A program made the translations under genes and the position numbers. A stretch of DNA of 53,850 bases, from the NCBI GenBank assembly GCA_965658385.1, contig CBFHRY010000003.1, positions 1,743 through 55,592 of the forward strand, given 5' to 3'. This document shows positions 5,625 through 13,408 of the stretch, in pieces. The stretch's first letter is position 1; every line of letters starts with the position of its first letter. The notes under the pieces were generated by a model. The model saw nothing but the letters and a program-made list of their open reading frames with translations. It was not told the DNA's origin and ran no database searches. The stretch comes from Gammaproteobacteria bacterium. Lineage in GTDB: Bacteria > Pseudomonadota > Gammaproteobacteria > Magnimaribacterales > D2472.

Positions 5625-6983
5625 GTGAATATACATACTATTATTCTTGCTGCTGGCGAAGGCACAAGAATGAACTCTAATCGTGCCAAGTCTCTACAAA
5701 CAGTAGGCGGCACTTCTATGTTAGAGAAAATATGCAGAACAGCAGGAAAAATTAGCAAAGACATAACCTTAATTGTTGGTTTTGACAAAGAATCAATTAT
5801 TAATGAGGCTAATACTTTTGCTGAATTAAATATCACAACCAGCCTTCAGCCCAAGCCAATAGGCACTGGCGATGCTGTAAAGTGTGGGTTGGACAAAGTC
5901 AACTCAGGCTCAAAAGTTTTGGTTCTATATGGCGACGTTCCATTAATCAAAAAAGCAACCCTAGACAATCTTATCGCAGAATCAAGCGAGGGCGCATCAA
6001 TCTTGACTACCACCCTAGAGGATCCTTTTGGCTATGGCAGAGTTAAAAAAACAGAGAACGGTTTTGCAACTGCTGTAATAGAAGAGAAAGATGCGGATAG
6101 CGATGAAAAGAAGATCAAAGAAGTATTTACCGGCGTTTTATGTGCTGAGAAAGAGCTCTTAGAAACAAGCCTTCAAGAAGTTACAAACAATAACGCAGCA
6201 AATGAATTTTACTTAACCGACATAGTTTCTATAATGAGTTCTAAGGGGGTAAATATTAATACCTACATTTCTTCAAATGAGGAAGTTCAAGGCGCTAATA
6301 ACAAAAAAGAGTTAGAAAAACTTGAGAGCATATATAGATCAATGAAAACAGAGGAATTATTTAACCAAGGCATAACTATTGTAGATGCCAAAAGACTTGA
6401 TGTTCGGGGCGAGGTTAAGGCTGGCAAAGACTGCTTGATAGATGTAAATGTAATTTTAGAGGGAGATATCACGCTTGGAAACAATGTGTCTATAGGCCCA
6501 AATACAATTTTGAAGGATGTAGAGGTTGGTGATGGCACCAAAATAGAAGCTTTCTCTCACATAGTAAATGCAAAAATTGGTGACAACTGCTCAATAGGAC
6601 CATATGCAAGACTAAGAGAGGGCAGCAGAATAGAAGATTCTGGAAAAGTAGGCAATTTTGTAGAAACAAAAAATAGCACACTTGGTAGTGGCTCAAAAGC
6701 TAACCATTTTACCTATTTAGGTGATACAACAGTTGGTACTAAAACAAATATTGGGGCCGGCACAATAACTTGCAACTATGACGGCAAAAACAAACATAAG
6801 ACCATAGTTGGTGATAATAGCTTCATAGGCAGCAACTCTTCTTTGGTGGCACCGGTGAAAATAGGAAATAACACCACCATTGCAGCCGGATCAACAATAA
6901 CCAAAGATGTTCCAAGCGATGCCCTTGGTGTTGGCAGGTCAAAACAAACAAATAAAGACAATTGGTCTAAGAAAAAAGGATAA
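5625..6983 (+). CDS. glmU: bifunctional UDP-N-acetylglucosamine pyrophosphorylase / glucosamine-1-phosphate N-acetyltransferase
   Basis: GTG start. ILAAGEGTRM nucleotidyltransferase motif and C-terminal left-handed beta-helix hexapeptide repeats. Sits upstream of glmS. Confidence 0.95.
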   Translation: MNIHTIILAAGEGTRMNSNRAKSLQTVGGTSMLEKICRTAGKISKDITLIVGFDKESIINEANTFAELNITTSLQPKPIGTGDAVKCGLDKVNSGSKVLVLYGDVPLIKKATLDNLIAESSEGASILTTTLEDPFGYGRVKKTENGFATAVIEEKDADSDEKKIKEVFTGVLCAEKELLETSLQEVTNNNAANEFYLTDIVSIMSSKGVNINTYISSNEEVQGANNKKELEKLESIYRSMKTEELFNQGITIVDAKRLDVRGEVKAGKDCLIDVNVILEGDITLGNNVSIGPNTILKDVEVGDGTKIEAFSHIVNAKIGDNCSIGPYARLREGSRIEDSGKVGNFVETKNSTLGSGSKANHFTYLGDTTVGTKTNIGAGTITCNYDGKNKHKTIVGDNSFIGSNSSLVAPVKIGNNTTIAAGSTITKDVPSDALGVGRSKQTNKDNWSKKKG

Positions 6984-6986
6984 AAA

Positions 6987-8813
6987 ATGTGCGGCATTAT
7001 TGCAGCTGCCTCTAACAGGCATGTAGGAAAATTATTAGTCCAAGGACTTCATAAAATGGAGTATCGAGGATATGACTCAGCAGGCATCGCTCTTCATCAA
7101 AATGAGAGCATAGCCCACCTTAGAGCCCTTGGAAAAGTTCAGCTTCTAGAAGAAAAAATGATTGCTGAAAAACCAAAAAGCAAATTAGGTATTGCTCATA
7201 CAAGATGGGCAACTCATGGGGAGCCATCAGAGACTAATGCTCATCCCCACAAATCTCAAGATTCTGTTTATATTGTTCATAACGGCATTATTGAAAATTA
7301 TGTTGAGCTTAAAGAAGACCTTAAGAAAGATGGCTATGAATTTATATCTCAAACAGATTCAGAGCTAATCGCCCATTTGCTTGATTTATATATTAACCAA
7401 GGCCAGTCAATGATAGACGCAATGTATTCAGCAAAAGAAAAACTCGAGGGCGCATATGCGATAGCAGCTATTGATATAAAAGATAGCACTAATTTGGTTA
7501 TAGCAAGAAACAAATCACCTCTATTAATAGGAGTTGGAACCGATGAAATGTTTGCAGCCTCAGATCCTCTTGCTATAGCACAACAAACCAATGATTTTAT
7601 TTTTTTAGAAGATGGTGATGTAGCAGAGATTTCTGCCAATAGTTACAAAATATTTGATGATTCTAAAAACGAAGCCAAAAGAGAAATCACACATATAGAT
7701 ATTTCAGCTCAAGCAACCTCAAAGGGTGATTACAGGCACTATATGGAAAAAGAAATATACGAACAACCTGAGGCTGTTTCAAAAACAATAGACGGAAGAA
7801 TAGGCGGCGAGGACGTTCTAGATAATATTTTTGGCTTGGGTTCTACCGAACTATTCTCAAAAGTAAAACGCATTCAAATGGTTGCTTGCGGAACAAGTCT
7901 TCATGCAGGAAGAGTTGCTGCAAATTGGTTTTCATCAATAGCCGATCTTCCATGCCAAGTTGATTATGCAAGTGAGTATAGATATAGAAATCCCCATGTA
8001 GATAAAAACTCATTATTAATTACCATTTCTCAATCAGGCGAAACAGCTGATACTTTGGCTGCCTTAAACTACGCAAAAGAAAAAGACTATCTTTCTACTC
8101 TTGCTATCTGCAATGTTCCCACGAGCTCTTTAGCTAGAGAGTCAGACTTTTCACTGTTTACCAACGCAGGCCCGGAAATAGGCGTTGCTTCAACCAAAGC
8201 TTTTACAACCCAGCTTGCAGGATTAATGTTGCTTGCATTATCACTGGCAAAAAGCAGAGGGCTAAACCCAAAACTCAGGGGAAGAATAGTCCAGGCGTTA
8301 AGATCGCTCCCAGTGACTATCGAAGAAGCCCTTAACCTAAAAGAACAAATGGTTGAAATAGCACCAAATATTGCTAACAAAGATAATGCTTTATTTTTAG
8401 GTAGAGGTATTTTTTATCCTATCGCCAAAGAAGGAGCATTAAAGCTTAAAGAGATTTCTTACATCCATGCAGAAGCTTACCCTGCTGGCGAGCTAAAACA
8501 TGGCCCACTTGCATTAATAGATGAAAATATGCCGGTTATAGCATTAGCGCCTGAAAGCGAAATTGCAGAAAAACTAATTTCTAATTTAGAAGAAGTGAAG
8601 GCAAGAGGTGGAACCCTTTATGTCTGCGCCGATCCTTCGGTAAACATGGATGTTAAGTCTGGCAAATTAGTTCACATGCCTGATTGTGATTTCTTTATGA
8701 CACCAATTGTTTATAACATTCCATTGCAAATTCTTTCATACGAAGTTGCACTTCTAAGAGGAACAGACATTGATCAGCCAAGGAACTTAGCCAAGTCAGT
8801 GACGGTGGAATAG
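6987..8813 (+). CDS. glmS: glutamine--fructose-6-phosphate aminotransferase (isomerizing)
   Basis: MCGI N-terminal nucleophile Cys, two SIS domains, and the canonical C-terminus LAKSVTVE-stop. Confidence 0.98.
   Translation: MCGIIAAASNRHVGKLLVQGLHKMEYRGYDSAGIALHQNESIAHLRALGKVQLLEEKMIAEKPKSKLGIAHTRWATHGEPSETNAHPHKSQDSVYIVHNGIIENYVELKEDLKKDGYEFISQTDSELIAHLLDLYINQGQSMIDAMYSAKEKLEGAYAIAAIDIKDSTNLVIARNKSPLLIGVGTDEMFAASDPLAIAQQTNDFIFLEDGDVAEISANSYKIFDDSKNEAKREITHIDISAQATSKGDYRHYMEKEIYEQPEAVSKTIDGRIGGEDVLDNIFGLGSTELFSKVKRIQMVACGTSLHAGRVAANWFSSIADLPCQVDYASEYRYRNPHVDKNSLLITISQSGETADTLAALNYAKEKDYLSTLAICNVPTSSLARESDFSLFTNAGPEIGVASTKAFTTQLAGLMLLALSLAKSRGLNPKLRGRIVQALRSLPVTIEEALNLKEQMVEIAPNIANKDNALFLGRGIFYPIAKEGALKLKEISYIHAEAYPAGELKHGPLALIDENMPVIALAPESEIAEKLISNLEEVKARGGTLYVCADPSVNMDVKSGKLVHMPDCDFFMTPIVYNIPLQILSYEVALLRGTDIDQPRNLAKSVTVE
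8795..8813 (+). repeat. core repeat R0 (gtcagtgacggtggaatag), the authentic glmS 3' end
   Basis: First of four direct copies of a 19-nt core. The others are at 9617, 10411 and 10675. Encodes S-V-T-V-E-stop. Confidence 0.9.
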
Positions 8814-8827
8814 TTTCGTTTGCAGAA

Positions 8828-9046
8828 TTAAGTCTTAGGCAGTTTAAATAAATCTTCAACTTTACAATTAAAAATCTTTGATATTTTTAATGCTAGAACG
8901 GTTGAGGGTACATAAATCCCATTTTCAATAGCATTGATACTTTTTCTTGAAACATCTGTTTTATTTGAAAGTTCTTGTTGAGTTAGACCTGCATTTTTTC
9001 TGTATTGCTCAAGATTGTTTAGGAGTTTGTGATGATTTTTACCCAT
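8828..9046 (-). CDS. small XRE-family helix-turn-helix transcriptional regulator (copy A)
   Basis: 72 aa from the ATG at 9046 (the ORF track extends to 9067). HTH_3-like LTQQELSNKTDVSRKSINAIENG. 59/72 residues identical to copy B by hand alignment. Overlaps the upstream gene by 8 nt (ATGGGTAA). Confidence 0.85.
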   Translation of the reverse strand: MGKNHHKLLNNLEQYRKNAGLTQQELSNKTDVSRKSINAIENGIYVPSTVLALKISKIFNCKVEDLFKLPKT

Positions 9047-9464
9047 GTTGGGATTCTCGATAATCACCTATTGCAAACCATATTAAAAGCACTCCAAAAA
9101 TTAACCAAGCATAAGCAGCAATTTGTAAAATCATATTTGATGCGATTTGGATATCCCAGTTTTGGTAATCTTGAATGCTAAATATTATAAATAAACCTAT
9201 GCCGTTAAGTGCGTACCCTAAATTGCCTAATCTATAAAATCTATCTGCTGCATATTCGTCATAAAGTTTATTATTTATTCCTTCTTTACCATAGTAATAA
9301 GATATTACTAAAACAATAGACGTTAAAATTATAAGTATTCCAGGTATGAACATTAGATTAGATGGAAGTTGTAATATACCTAAATCAAATAAAAGATGAA
9401 TTGCAAAAAAGACTTGTACGACTCCACATAAAAATAACATTAAAAAACGTGTATAAAAATTCAT
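9039..9464 (-). CDS. multi-pass membrane protein of unknown function, partner of the HTH regulator
   Basis: 141 aa with about 4 predicted TM helices and a charged central loop (LYDEYAADRFYR). Translationally coupled to the HTH gene. Confidence 0.7.
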   Translation of the reverse strand: MNFYTRFLMLFLCGVVQVFFAIHLLFDLGILQLPSNLMFIPGILIILTSIVLVISYYYGKEGINNKLYDEYAADRFYRLGNLGYALNGIGLFIIFSIQDYQNWDIQIASNMILQIAAYAWLIFGVLLIWFAIGDYRESQHG

Positions 9465-9492
9465 GGTTAGTTTATTTCCTTAATTAATTAAA

Positions 9493-9537
9493 TGTAACGT
9501 AAACTTATCACTATCTTAATGAGAAGTAAAGGTTACA
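9493..9537. promoter_or_regulatory. 45-nt imperfect palindrome (tgtaacgtaaactt N17 aagtaaaggttaca), candidate operator of the cassette A HTH regulator
   Basis: 14-nt arms matching 11/14, located 29-73 nt upstream of the membrane-gene start codon. Conserved with identical spacing in cassette B. Confidence 0.5.
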
Positions 9538-9616
9538 AGATAAATTATTGTATAATTCTTACGTGGACAAAAAATACATAAATTTCTACAAGAAATTTAT
9601 TCTGCAAACGAAAACA

Positions 9617-9635
9617 GTCAGTAACGGTGGAGTAG
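9617..9635 (+). repeat. core repeat R1 (gtcagtaacggtggagtag)
   Basis: 17/19 identical to R0. Both differences are third-codon-position changes in the frame S-V-T-V-E-stop. Sits in the loop of the 9597-9652 inverted repeat. Confidence 0.85.
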
Positions 9636-9649
9636 TTTCGTTTGCAGAA

Positions 9650-9868
9650 TTAATTATTTGGCAATCTAAATAAATCCTCTACCTTACATCCAAGAGTTTT
9701 AGAAATTTTTAAAGCAAGAACAGTAGAAGGGACATATATTCCGTTCTCAATTGCATTAATGCTTTTTCTAGAAACATCAGCACTCTCAGATAATTCCTGT
9801 TGAGTTAACCCTGCATTCTTACGAAGTTCCTCAAGATTGTTTAGAAGTTTTTTATGATCTTTGCCCAA
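9650..9868 (-). CDS. small XRE-family helix-turn-helix transcriptional regulator (copy B)
   Basis: 72 aa. Paralog of copy A (59/72 identical). Confidence 0.85.
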   Translation of the reverse strand: MGKDHKKLLNNLEELRKNAGLTQQELSESADVSRKSINAIENGIYVPSTVLALKISKTLGCKVEDLFRLPNN

Positions 9869-9870
9869 AA

Positions 9871-10266
9871 TTATTTCTTTTCGAAGTCTTCAACTGCATT
9901 TGTTAATTCTTCACTTGTGTTTGGGTAAAGATAACCAGCAATTATTTGTCCTAAACCAATAGCAGCAACTAATGCTCCAACACCTTTAAGCACTGAACCT
10001 AGAAAAAATACACCAAACAGAAAAAGACCCACACCAGTAAATAATGTAACAACCCCAGTTCTTCTATAATCAATTGGTTCTTTTTTTCTTTCATCAAGCA
10101 TGCCTATTAAGTCTTCGACTTTTGAAGGATCATCAATGTTTTTCGATATCTCCAATATTGTTCTATTCTTATCCTTGCTTTCAAAATATAACCAAACAAA
10201 GACAGATACAGGCACTATTATTCCTGTCATTATTCCTAATACCGGTATTAATATTTCAAGACCCAT
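9871..10266 (-). CDS. membrane protein of unknown function (3 predicted TM helices), partner of HTH copy B
   Basis: I place the start at the ATG at 10266 (MGLEILIPVLG...), which is preceded by GAGGAGAGGAAA. The ORF-track extension to 10401 would run through the conserved operator region. Confidence 0.7.
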   Translation of the reverse strand: MGLEILIPVLGIMTGIIVPVSVFVWLYFESKDKNRTILEISKNIDDPSKVEDLIGMLDERKKEPIDYRRTGVVTLFTGVGLFLFGVFFLGSVLKGVGALVAAIGLGQIIAGYLYPNTSEELTNAVEDFEKK

Positions 10267-10285
10267 TTTCCTCTCCTCACTAAAA

Positions 10286-10330
10286 TGTAACGCAAACTTA
10301 TCATTAATTATATGAGAAGTAAAGGTTACA
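10286..10330. promoter_or_regulatory. 45-nt imperfect palindrome (tgtaacgcaaactt N17 aagtaaaggttaca), candidate operator in cassette B
   Basis: Same arms and same 17-nt spacer length as the cassette A palindrome. Confidence 0.5.
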
Positions 10331-10410
10331 ATTAAAATCATTGTATAATTTTTTATATGGATAAAAAATATATAAATTTCTACAACAAATTTATTCTGCA
10401 AACGAAAACA

Positions 10411-10429
10411 CTCAATGACGGTGGAGTAG
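10411..10429 (+). repeat. core repeat R2 (ctcaatgacggtggagtag)
   Basis: In frame it reads S-M-T-V-E-stop. Immediately follows the right TIR of cassette B. Confidence 0.8.
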
Positions 10430-10674
10430 ATAAAGGTGTCTACATAATATGAGTAAAAAATTTAAAAATTCTGATAATGGCGGTAACTGGATTGGTGTTG
10501 GTACTGCGATAGGCGTAGCAGTTTTTGCCGCAACCAATGAACCAGTGTGGATAGCTGTAGGTGTTGCAATTGGAGCAGCGCTGGGTTGGCGAAAACCAAA
10601 AAATAAAGATGAAAAAGAAGCATCTTGATTTCTTGATTAAATTTTATAATCTAAAAAGTAGACAGTTAAATCTA
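10427..10674 (+). mobile_element. mini-cassette C: segment of about 245 bp with its own 17-nt imperfect TIRs and one 59-aa ORF
   Basis: tagataaaggtgtctac (10427-10443) versus gtagacagttaaatcta (10658-10674), 13/17 complementary including a perfect 7-mer tgtctac/gtagaca. Flanked by cores R2 and R3. Confidence 0.4.
10449..10628 (+). CDS. small glycine/alanine-rich membrane protein (59 aa), not in the supplied ORF track
   Basis: Hand translation: MSKKFKNSDNGGNWIGVGTAIGVAVFAATNEPVWIAVGVAIGAALGWRKPKNKDEKEAS-stop. Two short hydrophobic G/A-zipper segments and an AAAGG about 11 nt upstream of the ATG. Confidence 0.5.
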   Translation: MSKKFKNSDNGGNWIGVGTAIGVAVFAATNEPVWIAVGVAIGAALGWRKPKNKDEKEAS

Positions 10675-10693
10675 CTCAATGACAGTGGAATAA
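10675..10693 (+). repeat. core repeat R3 (ctcaatgacagtggaataa)
   Basis: In frame it reads S-M-T-V-E-stop (TAA). This is the most distal copy. Confidence 0.75.
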
Positions 10694-10717
10694 TTACGAT
10701 TAATGATATAGAAACGA

Positions 10718-11110
10718 ATGAATGAACTAAATAAACAAAACAAGATAATTACTTATATTTTTGAATTGGGACTCATTAAAAGCGTAAATGAGACTAGATG
10801 GTTTATGAGGGAAAATTCTTCTCCCTATGTTTTTAATTGCTCAGAACCCAAAACCATAAGATTTGAATGGTTTCTATCCGAAGATGAGAAGTCAGCAACA
10901 TTAATAGAAATGTTTGAAGATAGCGATGCTGCCAAACTAAGATTAGAAAATCACTCTGAAAGCCATCTTGTTAAAGAGTTTCCAGAATATTTTGAAATTA
11001 AGAACTTTATTGTTTTGGGCGATATTAAACCTGATATGAAGGATAAGTTAGCGGATTGGAATGCAGACTTAAGAGGAAATGTGGGTGGTTTTTTTAAAGG
11101 GCTAGATTAG
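10718..11110 (+). CDS. hypothetical protein, possibly ABM/Dabb-like ferredoxin fold
   Basis: 130-aa ORF. Only a weak resemblance to ABM-domain proteins (FEWFLSEDEKSATLIEMFEDSDAAKLRLENH), so the function is not supported beyond that. Confidence 0.55.
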   Translation: MNELNKQNKIITYIFELGLIKSVNETRWFMRENSSPYVFNCSEPKTIRFEWFLSEDEKSATLIEMFEDSDAAKLRLENHSESHLVKEFPEYFEIKNFIVLGDIKPDMKDKLADWNADLRGNVGGFFKGLD

Positions 11111-11184
11111 TAAAGGTTACACCAAATTTTTTTGCATACTCTGCAAAGTGAATTATGATATAGCCATATCAACTACATAAATCA

Positions 11185-12972
11185 ATGAACCGATTATTAT
11201 CTAGTTTTGTTCTGTTTATTCTTATTACAGCCTGCGGGGGTGGCTCAGGCTCGTCTTCAGAGCCAGCCCCAGTTCAGCCGCCAACCAACCCTTCAATACC
11301 CACTTTTAATTCATCGTCAAACTCTATATTTACAAATGAATCTATTGCAATAACTTGGAGTAGCAATAATGCAAGCACATGTATGGCTAGTGGCGACTGG
11401 GATGGCCAAAAAGCTTCTACTGGTAGTGAAAGCTTGCAGTTACAAGAAGCAAAAACTTATACATTTATACTAACCTGCTCTGGTGAAGTGGGCACACAAC
11501 CTGCCACAGCAAGCCTTGATGTTATTGTTATGGAGCCACCAGCACCAGCCCCAAAACTATCAAGTGTTTCATTTCTGTTAGAAGATAATAATCAGTTAGA
11601 AAATGATATTGCTCTTGAAGAACAGTCTGAGAGCGCTTTTTTTGGCAGAGTTCCTTTCAACATATCGCTAGATGGGCTTGCAGCAACCTATGAATTTATA
11701 GGCAGCAGCATTCAGATTAACGATGTTGAGCAAGAAAGTGGAATAACCAGAAACAATTTTACAGATATAGTAAATGTAAAAGTTTTGAACAAAGATGGCG
11801 ATAGCGAGACTTATCAAATTAACTTAACCAAATTTACCGGCTTGCCTATTGTGTACATAGAAACAGATGGATCAATGCAAATAGATTCAAAAGATGATTA
11901 TGTGCTTGGGGATACTAATATAGATGGCGGCAGGAATTATGAAAATTTTCCAAGCGCTTCCATGAAGATTAGAGGCAGGGGTAATTCCACTTGGGAGTTT
12001 CCGAAAAAACCCTTCCAAATGAAGCTGGACGATAAAGCAGAGTTTCTAGGAATGCCAAATGATAAGAAATGGCTCTTTCTAGCAGAATATACCGATAAAA
12101 CAATGCTTAGAAATACAATTGCTTTTGAGATGGGCTACATAAGCCATTTGGATTGGACTCCTGAGGCAGAATTTGCAGAGGTTTATATCAACGGTGATTA
12201 CAATGGTACTTACAACATAACTCAAAAAGTTGAAGAAGGTGATAACAGAGTTGCCATTGGTGACACCGGATATTTACTTGAGCTCGACCAATTAGAGAAT
12301 CTTGATTCAGACGATGTGTATTTTGAAAGCGCTGTAACAGAAAGGTTTATTATCAATATTAAAGAACCAAACCTAGATGCTGGATCAGATGAATTTGTAT
12401 ACATAGAAAATCTTATTACTAATTTTGAAAATAACTTGTTTAGCCAAAATTTTGCAGATGAGGCAACGGGATATAGGCAATATATAGATATGGAAAGTTT
12501 CATTGATTGGTTTTTGATTAGTGAGATAACAAAAAATGTTGATTCAATGTTTTTCTCAAGTATTTTTCTAAACGTTATGCCTGGAGAGAAAATAAAAATG
12601 GGGCCTTTATGGGATTTTGATTTATCTTTTGGCAATGTTGATTATGCAGATAGTCGATATCCTGAGGGATGGTGGGTTAAATACAACCCTTGGTACGAGC
12701 GCTTATTTGAAGACCCTGCGTTCGTTGAAGCAGTAAGAAATAGATTTGAATATTTTAATAACAACAGGGACTATATTCTAAATAAAATTGATACATATGC
12801 AGAAAAATTAAAATGGGCACAGGAAGAAAATGATGACAAATGGCAAACCATTGGTGTTTATGTTTGGCCTAACCCAGTTATATTTGATACTTATCAAGAA
12901 GAGGTTGATCATATGAAGGCATGGTATGAGACTAGGATGGATTGGCTAGAATCAGCTCTCGGTGATTTATAA
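11185..12972 (+). CDS. CotH kinase-family lipoprotein with an N-terminal Ig-like domain
   Basis: Lipobox LITAC followed by a G/S linker. Ig-like ITWSSNNASTCMASGDWDG motif. CotH-type motifs RGRGNSTWEFPKKPFQMKLD and PLWDFDLSFGN. Confidence 0.8.
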   Translation: MNRLLSSFVLFILITACGGGSGSSSEPAPVQPPTNPSIPTFNSSSNSIFTNESIAITWSSNNASTCMASGDWDGQKASTGSESLQLQEAKTYTFILTCSGEVGTQPATASLDVIVMEPPAPAPKLSSVSFLLEDNNQLENDIALEEQSESAFFGRVPFNISLDGLAATYEFIGSSIQINDVEQESGITRNNFTDIVNVKVLNKDGDSETYQINLTKFTGLPIVYIETDGSMQIDSKDDYVLGDTNIDGGRNYENFPSASMKIRGRGNSTWEFPKKPFQMKLDDKAEFLGMPNDKKWLFLAEYTDKTMLRNTIAFEMGYISHLDWTPEAEFAEVYINGDYNGTYNITQKVEEGDNRVAIGDTGYLLELDQLENLDSDDVYFESAVTERFIINIKEPNLDAGSDEFVYIENLITNFENNLFSQNFADEATGYRQYIDMESFIDWFLISEITKNVDSMFFSSIFLNVMPGEKIKMGPLWDFDLSFGNVDYADSRYPEGWWVKYNPWYERLFEDPAFVEAVRNRFEYFNNNRDYILNKIDTYAEKLKWAQEENDDKWQTIGVYVWPNPVIFDTYQEEVDHMKAWYETRMDWLESALGDL

Positions 12973-13012
12973 TTTAGAATCAATTTAAGCATAACAATTT
13001 GAGGTTATATAC

Positions 13013-13375
13013 ATGGTTACATTTATTTCATTAGCATTACTTTTATATCTTATTCAACTAATTTTGCCGAATGCATTAAAGGCTGGAACGGGTTATGCAA
13101 AAAGGGCGGGTAAAGCGCTTAAAAATTTAAGCGAATCTTTGCCTGTTTATCTGACTTTAGCAATCCTATCAATTGTTTTAAGTGTTGATGAAAATACAAT
13201 GCTTGCCCTTTACTGGTTAATAGCCAGATTAATATTTGCAGTTATATACGTCTTAGGGCTTGGTCTTGATAATAAGTCTAAAGAGTCACAGGGCCCTGAC
13301 AGACAACCACTCCGATCTTTTGTCTGGGCTGGATCAATAGTTATATTGATTGCAATGACCTCAAATCTATTTTAG
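13013..13375 (+). CDS. MAPEG-family-like small membrane protein
   Basis: 120 aa with 3-4 TM helices. Size and layout resemble MAPEG; the assignment is tentative. Confidence 0.55.
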   Translation: MVTFISLALLLYLIQLILPNALKAGTGYAKRAGKALKNLSESLPVYLTLAILSIVLSVDENTMLALYWLIARLIFAVIYVLGLGLDNKSKESQGPDRQPLRSFVWAGSIVILIAMTSNLF

Positions 13376-13408
13376 GTAGAAAAACATAAAAAACCACAGG
13401 CTTATATT

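Follow-up and report, generated by a model that had tools for sequence, protein, structure and literature searches.

The 53,850-nt stretch of DNA analysed here (the window) carries the plus-strand gene order atpD-atpC-glmU-glmS in its list of open reading frames (ORFs), followed by an array of three small units, A, B and C, set between copies of the glmS 3' end. The third unit, cassette C, holds one ORF of 59 amino acids (aa), termed ORF59, and is the subject of this study. The window's GlmS is 95% identical to the copy of a SAR86 single-cell genome (L014), and we therefore take the host to be a SAR86 gammaproteobacterium. The glmS tail, TCARTRACRGTGGARTAR, occurs in four copies in the window (8796, 9618, 10412 and 10676), on the plus strand only, against a chance expectation of ~0.01. 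All four copies, the cores R0 to R3, are in the glmS frame, each reading S-V/M-T-V-E-stop, and the three units between them are A and B, of ~0.8 kb each, and cassette C, of ~245 bp. The features of the array, with the cores assigned by the core pattern, are:

6987-8813, plus strand: glmS, 608 aa, from the ORF list; its last 18 nt are core R0
8796-8813, plus strand: core R0, TCAGTGACGGTGGAATAG, S-V-T-V-E-stop, the proposed docking core
8814-9617, minus strand: cassette A, a gene for an XRE helix-turn-helix protein (79 aa) and one for a 141-aa membrane protein
9618-9635, plus strand: core R1, TCAGTAACGGTGGAGTAG, S-V-T-V-E-stop
9636-10411, minus strand: cassette B, a gene for an XRE helix-turn-helix protein (72 aa) and one for a DUF6249 membrane protein
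10412-10429, plus strand: core R2, TCAATGACGGTGGAGTAG, S-M-T-V-E-stop
10430-10443, plus strand: left arm of cassette C, type a, ATAAAGGTGTCTAC, which also starts a DUF3784 cassette in other cells
10449-10628, plus strand: ORF59, 59 aa, a small two-helix glycine-zipper membrane protein
10629-10657, plus strand: conserved 3' untranslated stretch of 29 nt, TTTCTTGATTAAATTTTATAAnCnAAAAA, from the comparison of loci
10658-10675, plus strand: right arm of cassette C, type b', GTAGACAGTTAAATCTAC, from end complementarity and the comparison of loci
10676-10693, plus strand: core R3, TCAATGACAGTGGAATAA, S-M-T-V-E-stop, with its AC at 10682-10683

Cassette A is bounded by a perfect 15-nt inverted repeat, TTTCGTTTGCAGAAT, with its dyad centre at core position 7.5, and cassette B has the same inverted ends. 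Cassette C is the segment between R2 and R3, direct repeats of the glmS tail, and its ends are of another sequence. A first-pass annotation, made from the letters alone, had described these ends, tagataaaggtgtctac (10427-10443) and gtagacagttaaatcta (10658-10674), as 13/17 complementary with a perfect 7-mer, TGTCTAC/GTAGACA. They are present as described and, when random window pairs are held in the register fixed by the cores, a match of at least 10/14 has P = 9e-4 and a run of at least 7 has P = 7e-4, that is, about 1e-3. Comparison of loci revealed two arm types per side, a (ATAAAGGTGTCTAC) and b (ATAGAACTGTCTAC), with the complements a' and b', and all four combinations exist. In copies of the a + a' kind (L066, L073, L077) the 13-nt inverted repeat is perfect; the window copy, a hybrid, combines a on the left with b' on the right, and its ends reach only 13/17 because its arms are mixed. 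The dyad centre of cassette C falls at the same core position, 7.5, as in the other cassettes. No promoter, terminator or Rfam family was predicted within the cassette. The 29-nt stretch behind ORF59 (TTTCTTGATTAAATTTTATAA.C.AAAAA) has a p-distance of 0.10 compared with a dS of 0.30, evolving ~3x more slowly than synonymous sites; it lies outside the ~50-bp symmetric site described below, and no structure or promoter accounts for its conservation. A miniature inverted-repeat element or other insertion-sequence-type transposon was considered and rejected: the cores on either side are not identical, most of the differences being synonymous, each half of a core goes with a different neighbour, and no transposase was found.

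The same ends and flanking cores recur across many genomes and array positions, which bears out the first-pass description of a third cassette with the architecture of A and B. Across 141 loci, the ORF59 cassette has at least 21 distinct upstream and at least 21 distinct downstream neighbours beyond its cores, and cores flank it on both sides in 21 loci. It stands third in the window, ahead of an A/B-type cassette in L065 and L092, and twice in tandem in L074, while in L001-L006, L010, L074 and L117 an ORF59 with the same kind of arms begins 19 nt past the glmS stop. Of the ORF59 loci whose upstream sequence reaches at least 4 kb, 55 in all, 37 have glmS upstream on the same strand, and in several more ORF59 sits deeper in a long array. 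In contigs from four marine metagenomes, breaks or branches fall exactly at 8813 (the glmS stop), at 10682 (within R3) and directly after 10693, with several alternative continuations at the branch points, and in other cells the left arm plus ATG runs on into a different (DUF3784) gene. On this comparison, cassette C is a discrete, reshuffled one-gene mobile unit. Both the ORF and the inverted repeat are conserved, and nearly every canonical copy has a core downstream of it; none of the opposite observations, which the first-pass annotation had named beforehand as counting against its proposal, was made.

ORF59 itself had been proposed to contain two G/A-rich hydrophobic stretches, and we confirmed both, including a G38xxxG42xxxG46 zipper. 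A search of marine metagenomes and genomes yielded 586 homologues at E <= 0.01, an alignment of 23 sequences contained 22 invariant columns (GNWIGVGTAIGAAVFAATNEPVWIAVGVAIGAALGWRKPK), and dN/dS (nonsynonymous to synonymous rate ratio) was 0.17 over the 36 conserved codons of 18 distinct canonical cassettes. By these measures of conservation ORF59 is a real gene encoding a real protein. An AlphaFold model consists of a helix (residues 17-28), a TNEP turn and a second helix (33-46), at a low confidence (pLDDT score 56). Both tails are basic, so that a membrane hairpin with both ends in the cytoplasm is likely, and we regard the product as a likely conserved inner-membrane helical hairpin with a glycine zipper. 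The glycine-zipper profile PF13488 scored 16.8 bits against a cut-off of 25, PF26273 gave only a "weak" precomputed match on homologues, and neither Pfam, NCBIfam nor PADLOC returned an above-threshold match, with no defence-system model matching. These profile searches speak neither for nor against the toxin- or holin-like role suggested in the first-pass annotation, the glycine zipper being present as a motif only. Wide retention of ORF59 under purifying selection would argue against a simple toxin. Metatranscriptome contigs span ORF59 and both cores, at a low depth at which DNA carry-over is possible, and are compatible with read-through transcription. Outside the glmS array, in several SAR86-type genomes, an ORF59 homologue heads an operon (L107:6001-7327; also L017, L018, L021, L110 and L113) whose next genes encode a homologue of cassette A's membrane protein (141 aa), an XRE regulator (84 aa) and a glycine-rich lipoprotein (160 aa). 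Since ORF59 is thus an operon-mate of cassette A-type genes in some genomes, it probably works with XRE/membrane modules, and the gene order suggests a functional tie. ORF59 was not found in IMG/VR viral contigs; three IMG/VR matches to the core-plus-arm DNA pattern were dismissed as chance, being without glmS.

According to the database records, the hosts of ORF59 include SAR86, SAR92, Luminiphilus (Halieaceae), Porticoccaceae, Neomarinimicrobiota, Flavobacteriaceae and Rhodobiaceae, together with more than a dozen Ca. Actinomarina single-cell genomes and metagenome-assembled genomes. ORF59 sits just past glmS in SAR86, SAR92, Halieaceae, Ca. Actinomarina, Marinimicrobia, Flavobacteria and Alphaproteobacteria; at the loci outside SAR86 (single-cell genomes for Ca. 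Actinomarina, Rhodobiaceae for the Alphaproteobacteria), GlmS is 43-66% identical to that of the window and ORF59 64-91%. A maximum-likelihood tree of ORF59 was poorly resolved and did not follow taxonomy; SAR86, Marinimicrobia and Alphaproteobacteria copies clustered no better than under shuffled labels, and in one case a Marinimicrobia copy paired, with good support, with a SAR86 copy. In Actinomarina, ORF59 is fixed between two peptidoglycan-precursor genes, glmS and alr, wedged there in most genomes with 2 nt to spare and without arms. A second S-V-T-V-E-like core lies between ORF59 and alr in the Actinomarina-type loci L131 and L124 and is degenerate in L031/L127/L133; this second core ahead of alr is the signature of an insertion. 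Four Ca. Actinomarina loci (L019, L034, L039, L043; ~6150-6340) also carry a second, diverged ORF59 paralogue (47-54% identity) directly after the first. Separately, in the Marinimicrobia-type loci L053, L114 and L126, no glmS-array units come after the ORF59 homologue; in their place stand a degenerate core-like sequence and, beyond it, a tRNA gene.

For the geometry of the ends, we took a cassette to be the stretch between consecutive cores and collected 105 distinct cassettes. A strong terminal inverted repeat was present in 40 of them, and in 37/40 its symmetry axis fell at core position 7.5, between A7 and C8 of TCAGTG-AC-NGT in the 18-nt core. As a control, left and right ends were mismatched, and 233/3000 random pairs reached an equal score, mostly via shared arm families. 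We also compared 205-207 distinct junctions for linkage between core bases and flanks. Pairs with only the upstream flank in common agreed at core positions 3 and 6 at rates of 0.67 and 0.59 (baseline 0.35 and 0.26), and pairs with only the downstream flank in common agreed at positions 12, 15, 17 and 18 at rates of 0.60, 0.91, 0.97 and 0.90 (baseline 0.35, 0.47, 0.77 and 0.50); the linkage persisted with real glmS ends excluded. This flank linkage brackets the exchange point to positions 7-11, which include the invariant AC at the dyad centre. In the junctions compared, core bases 5' of the AC travel with the upstream unit and those 3' of it with the downstream unit, and such a bracketed exchange region is the pattern expected where a site has its crossover in a short central stretch. 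That the cores vary synonymously follows if each half once served in a working glmS end. Taken together, linkage and dyad analysis would place the crossover dinucleotide AC of R2 at 10418-10419, and if strands are exchanged at the AC, the recombination unit of cassette C would be 10420-10683 on the plus strand, 264 bp.

The candidate enzymes are large serine recombinases (LSRs). At one ORF59 locus, L089, a 194-198-aa resolvase-type gene overlaps the start of a 552-aa LSR with PF00239, PF07508 and PF13408 domains (Resolvase, Recombinase and zinc-ribbon). In a 23,150-bp record (L148/L155), the glmS 3' end, 91-97% identical to that of the window, is followed by an element of ~22.5 kb carrying a helicase, two methylases, a GIY-YIG gene, a resolvase and, at its distal end, the LSR. 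Its left junction runs from core TCAGTAACTGTTGAATAA into arm ATTTGGGTGTTACCCTTT, and its right junction from arm AAAGAGTTACACCCAAA into core TCCATCACAGTGGAGTAR; the two arms are 15/18 complementary about the same dyad centre. Read by eye at the junctions, the element arm ATTTGGGTGTTACC and arm a of cassette C have GGTGT in common at the same offset. Downstream of the element's second core comes the ORF59 cassette, directly in L151 and L154, and after a 124-aa lipoprotein cassette in L144.

The LSR family comprises at least 208 proteins, of which we examined four further members (53-59% identity). In L161, the LSR element is inserted at the glmS 3' end behind atpDC-glmU-glmS; in L164 and in Ca. 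Thioglobus L165, the LSR gene is convergent with glmS and overlaps its end. The junction sequences of these elements contain inverted repeats centred on 7.5 (14/18 in L161, 16/16 in L164 and 19/19 in L165), and in L162/L163 the LSR is followed by a core, with no glmS match on those contigs. Thus, at all four glmS-reaching loci of the five members examined, the LSR belongs to an element at the glmS 3' end with the same geometry, the LSR-bearing arrays being L144/L148/L155, L161, L164 and L165. A 51-aa fossil of the LSR C-terminus (47% identity; L078:2134-2283, minus strand) lies right after glmS in an array that holds the ORF59 cassette. The overlap in L164 (10001-13531) and L165 (10001-13573) amounts to the last 18-27 nt of the LSR gene, so that excision would change the LSR C-terminus. 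Both elements also hold a short Phage_integrase-domain protein, and that of L165 a protein-primed-type DNA polymerase B (PF03175). No close relative of the 552-aa LSR was found in IMG/VR.

Putting these observations together, we propose that cassette C is a mobile but not autonomous unit with a single gene, that it belongs to an accretion array at the glmS end, resembling that of the staphylococcal cassette chromosome (SCC), and that it is moved by an LSR; we would give this reading a probability of about 0.6. The glmS-docking LSR family probably moves cassette C. In the proposed mechanism, the free circular unit would carry an attP-like site composed of right arm, core and left arm, ~50 bp long and two-fold symmetric around the AC of the Thr codon (TCARTR-AC-NGTNGARTAR). 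An LSR of the glmS-targeting family, supplied by the bigger elements of the same arrays, would recombine this site with the glmS end, the sequence 5' of the AC remaining with the upstream unit and that 3' of it coming with the incoming unit. Because the halves split at the AC, glmS would always keep an intact S-V/M-T-V-E-stop, with the old tail pushed downstream. Cassettes that lack a recombinase would be moved either in trans or as passengers of an LSR element whose excision starts from a core farther along the array. The action of the LSR on cassette C and the exact cut site are inferred. Our wider reading, to which we give somewhat less than an even chance, is that the glmS stop region may be a cross-phylum docking site for sub-kilobase cassettes driven by serine recombinases, with the ORF59 unit as the smallest and widest-spread of them, a hitchhiker on glmS-targeting recombinase elements that passed among Gammaproteobacteria, Actinomarina, Marinimicrobia, Flavobacteria and Alphaproteobacteria and became fixed in Actinomarina between glmS and alr.

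Several observations weigh against movement by an LSR. No recombinase was found in the window by motif scans plus a check for LSR homologues, a weak negative as far as the scans go, since they missed the LSR itself and caught only its small partner; and an LSR is carried by just 1 of 140 ORF59 loci. No consensus is shared across the ~70 arm families, and TGT at offset 8-9 is modestly enriched, in a minority of arms. The suggestion of the first-pass annotation that structure and position matter more than a fixed end sequence largely holds on this account, the centre being fixed in 37/40, and the want of a consensus implies many specificities or a relaxed reading of the arms, a single enzyme not obviously reading them all. 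Core position 9 goes only weakly with the downstream unit (0.39; baseline 0.27). No empty site or circular junction specific to cassette C was seen in Logan contigs, whose fragmentation is too great for clean joints of either kind to show. Moreover, about one quarter to one third of the ORF59 homologues with enough flank do not adjoin glmS, and the mixed-arm copy of the window could be a decaying, immobile one.

Ordinary homologous recombination or gene conversion through the repeated 18-40-nt cores and shared arms would require no dedicated recombinase. The cores, and some arms, are common to units and provide short homology, the four arm combinations (a/a', a/b', b/a', b/b') suggest recombination inside or beside ORF59, and recombinase genes are very rare in the arrays. 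However, homologous exchange neither needs nor makes cassette-specific inverted ends centred within half a base pair in 37/40 cases, nor does it readily give a switch in linkage within a few bases around an invariant AC; transfer between phyla whose glmS DNA is only distantly similar would be hard, and LSR elements of the same geometry exist. We consider this route unlikely. A still smaller chance is left to a host tyrosine recombinase, XerC/XerD or another chromosomal enzyme, using the core as a dif- or att-like site. Every phylum with the cassette also has Xer enzymes, and the weak linkage of position 9 could fit a slightly wider overlap. Tyrosine recombinases, however, use an identical overlap of 6-8 bp, for which the 7-11 bracket leaves too little room: positions 6 and 12 vary freely yet link to opposite sides, limiting the overlap to at most 5 bp. 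A dif site is 28 bp long, with two 11-bp arms around a 6-bp spacer, bound by XerC/XerD; by inspection against this 11-6-11 architecture, with no dif search run, the core and arms are unlike it, and the parts of the arms that are symmetric begin and end ~12-25 bp away from the centre of the dyad. Nor is any Xer gene linked to any array, whereas LSR genes are.

That ORF59 is an old, vertically inherited gene behind glmS, with only A and B inserted and with R3 and the weak repeat as by-products, might be thought from its being the first gene after glmS in many relatives and from its armless state between glmS and alr in most Ca. Actinomarina. Against this stand the 21 different neighbours on each side, the varied array positions (among them behind an LSR element, and as tandem copies), the 21 loci with cores on both sides and the pure copies with perfect 13-nt inverted repeats; ORF59 is, besides, far more similar across phyla than glmS, and its tree is incongruent with taxonomy. 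On these comparisons vertical inheritance is largely refuted, and we rate it as very improbable. We put equally little weight on an integron-like process in which the inverted ends fold as single-stranded hairpins read by their structure, as attC sites are. The arms do vary in sequence between cassette families while keeping their symmetry, and a single site holds a stack of small cassettes, most of them with one gene. Yet no ORF with IntI-type or tyrosine-recombinase motifs appeared in the window or in 143 loci (a motif scan, and so a weak negative), and the complementary arms sit at opposite ends of the cargo, not in one 3' attC, those beside R2 at the B/C junction not being complementary. 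The core would moreover become the unpaired 18-22-nt loop of a hairpin, yet exchange maps inside it.

Downstream of R3 (10694-13400) the window contains a 130-aa ORF (10718-11110), a CotH-domain lipoprotein gene (11185-12972) and a MAPEG protein gene (13013-13375), which may be older cassettes with decayed cores. A 280-aa glyoxalase-family gene lies downstream of the MAPEG gene and appears as the conserved right flank of the island in relatives (L002). After the 130-aa ORF, at 11109-11160, there is a remnant that resembles the right end of an A/B-type cassette, and metagenome contigs at a depth of up to 222 join 10335 to 11127, so that in other cells an A/B-type end is continuous with that sequence.

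The proposed mechanics recall SCC elements. SCC and SCCmec, pseudo-SCC elements and composite islands are moved by the LSRs CcrAB and CcrC at the 3' end of rlmH (orfX). As in the glmS arrays, insertion is within the last codons of a conserved housekeeping gene whose frame is restored, direct repeats of the gene end bound every unit, with imperfect inverted repeats adjoining them, and units accrete in tandem. Many units without a recombinase stand beside LSR-carrying ones in both, and the LSRs of glmS arrays are often paired with a second, small serine recombinase. The systems differ in that the target here is glmS and not rlmH and that the hosts are streamlined marine bacteria of several phyla; the glmS units also go down to 245 bp with one 59-aa gene, the size of an integron cassette. 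The likeness to Ccr enzymes is one of shared domain architecture. Like integrons, the arrays stack small cassettes, mostly promoterless and of one gene, at a fixed site with no set limit; the symmetry of the ends is conserved above their sequence, and the cassette pool is common to several taxa. Unlike integrons, they were found without IntI and without attC sites of the GTTRRRY core, the linked enzymes being serine recombinases, and their inverted ends stand on both sides of the cargo, the exchange point lying within a coding core that the units share.

For Tn7, too, the glmS 3' end, conserved universally, marks a safe place to dock. Its insertion point is ~23 bp past the glmS stop, where a 5-bp duplication is made, and it brings tnsABCD with it, whereas here exchange would take place inside the last codons and the 18-nt repeat is not a duplication. 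A Tn7-like element was accordingly rejected: there are no tns genes between glmS and the conserved right flank, and the junction is within the coding end. Additive flexible genomic islands, or tycheposons, of streamlined aquatic bacteria are marked by repeated tRNA 3' ends (PMC10872708). There as here, the repeated 3' end of a conserved gene punctuates an island of variable small genes in abundant planktonic bacteria; the difference is between tRNA/tmRNA ends with tyrosine recombinases and a glmS coding end with serine recombinases. Unlike the tRNA/tmRNA repeats, the glmS-core repeat varies synonymously and so stays translatable. One published tycheposon, in Methylophilaceae (OM43, Ca. Methylopumilus), reportedly has glmS at its end (PMC10872708). 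In the literature searched we found no account of glmS-anchored cassette arrays with serine recombinases, the closest published systems there being the additive islands with repeated tRNA ends and the tycheposons (PMC10872708). We regard the arrays as joining SCC-like mechanics to an integron-like scale; what is new here is the range of a single minimal cassette across phyla, together with the fixed centre of the dyads, the linkage of core halves and the LSR family at glmS.

Few bacteria of the surface ocean are more abundant or more streamlined than SAR86, Ca. Actinomarina and Marinimicrobia, which are thought to be poor in mobile elements. If the proposed reading is true, a glmS platform would explain how streamlined genomes sample accessory genes at nearly no cost, by way of cassettes of as little as 245 bp that several phyla have in common, and a serine-recombinase route would be added to the integron and tycheposon routes, as a functional counterpart of the integron built on another enzyme. 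It would also provide natural recombinases whose target sequence nearly all bacteria possess, useful for genome engineering, and ORF59, a gene missed by annotation pipelines, would be among the most widely transferred genes of the glmS system.

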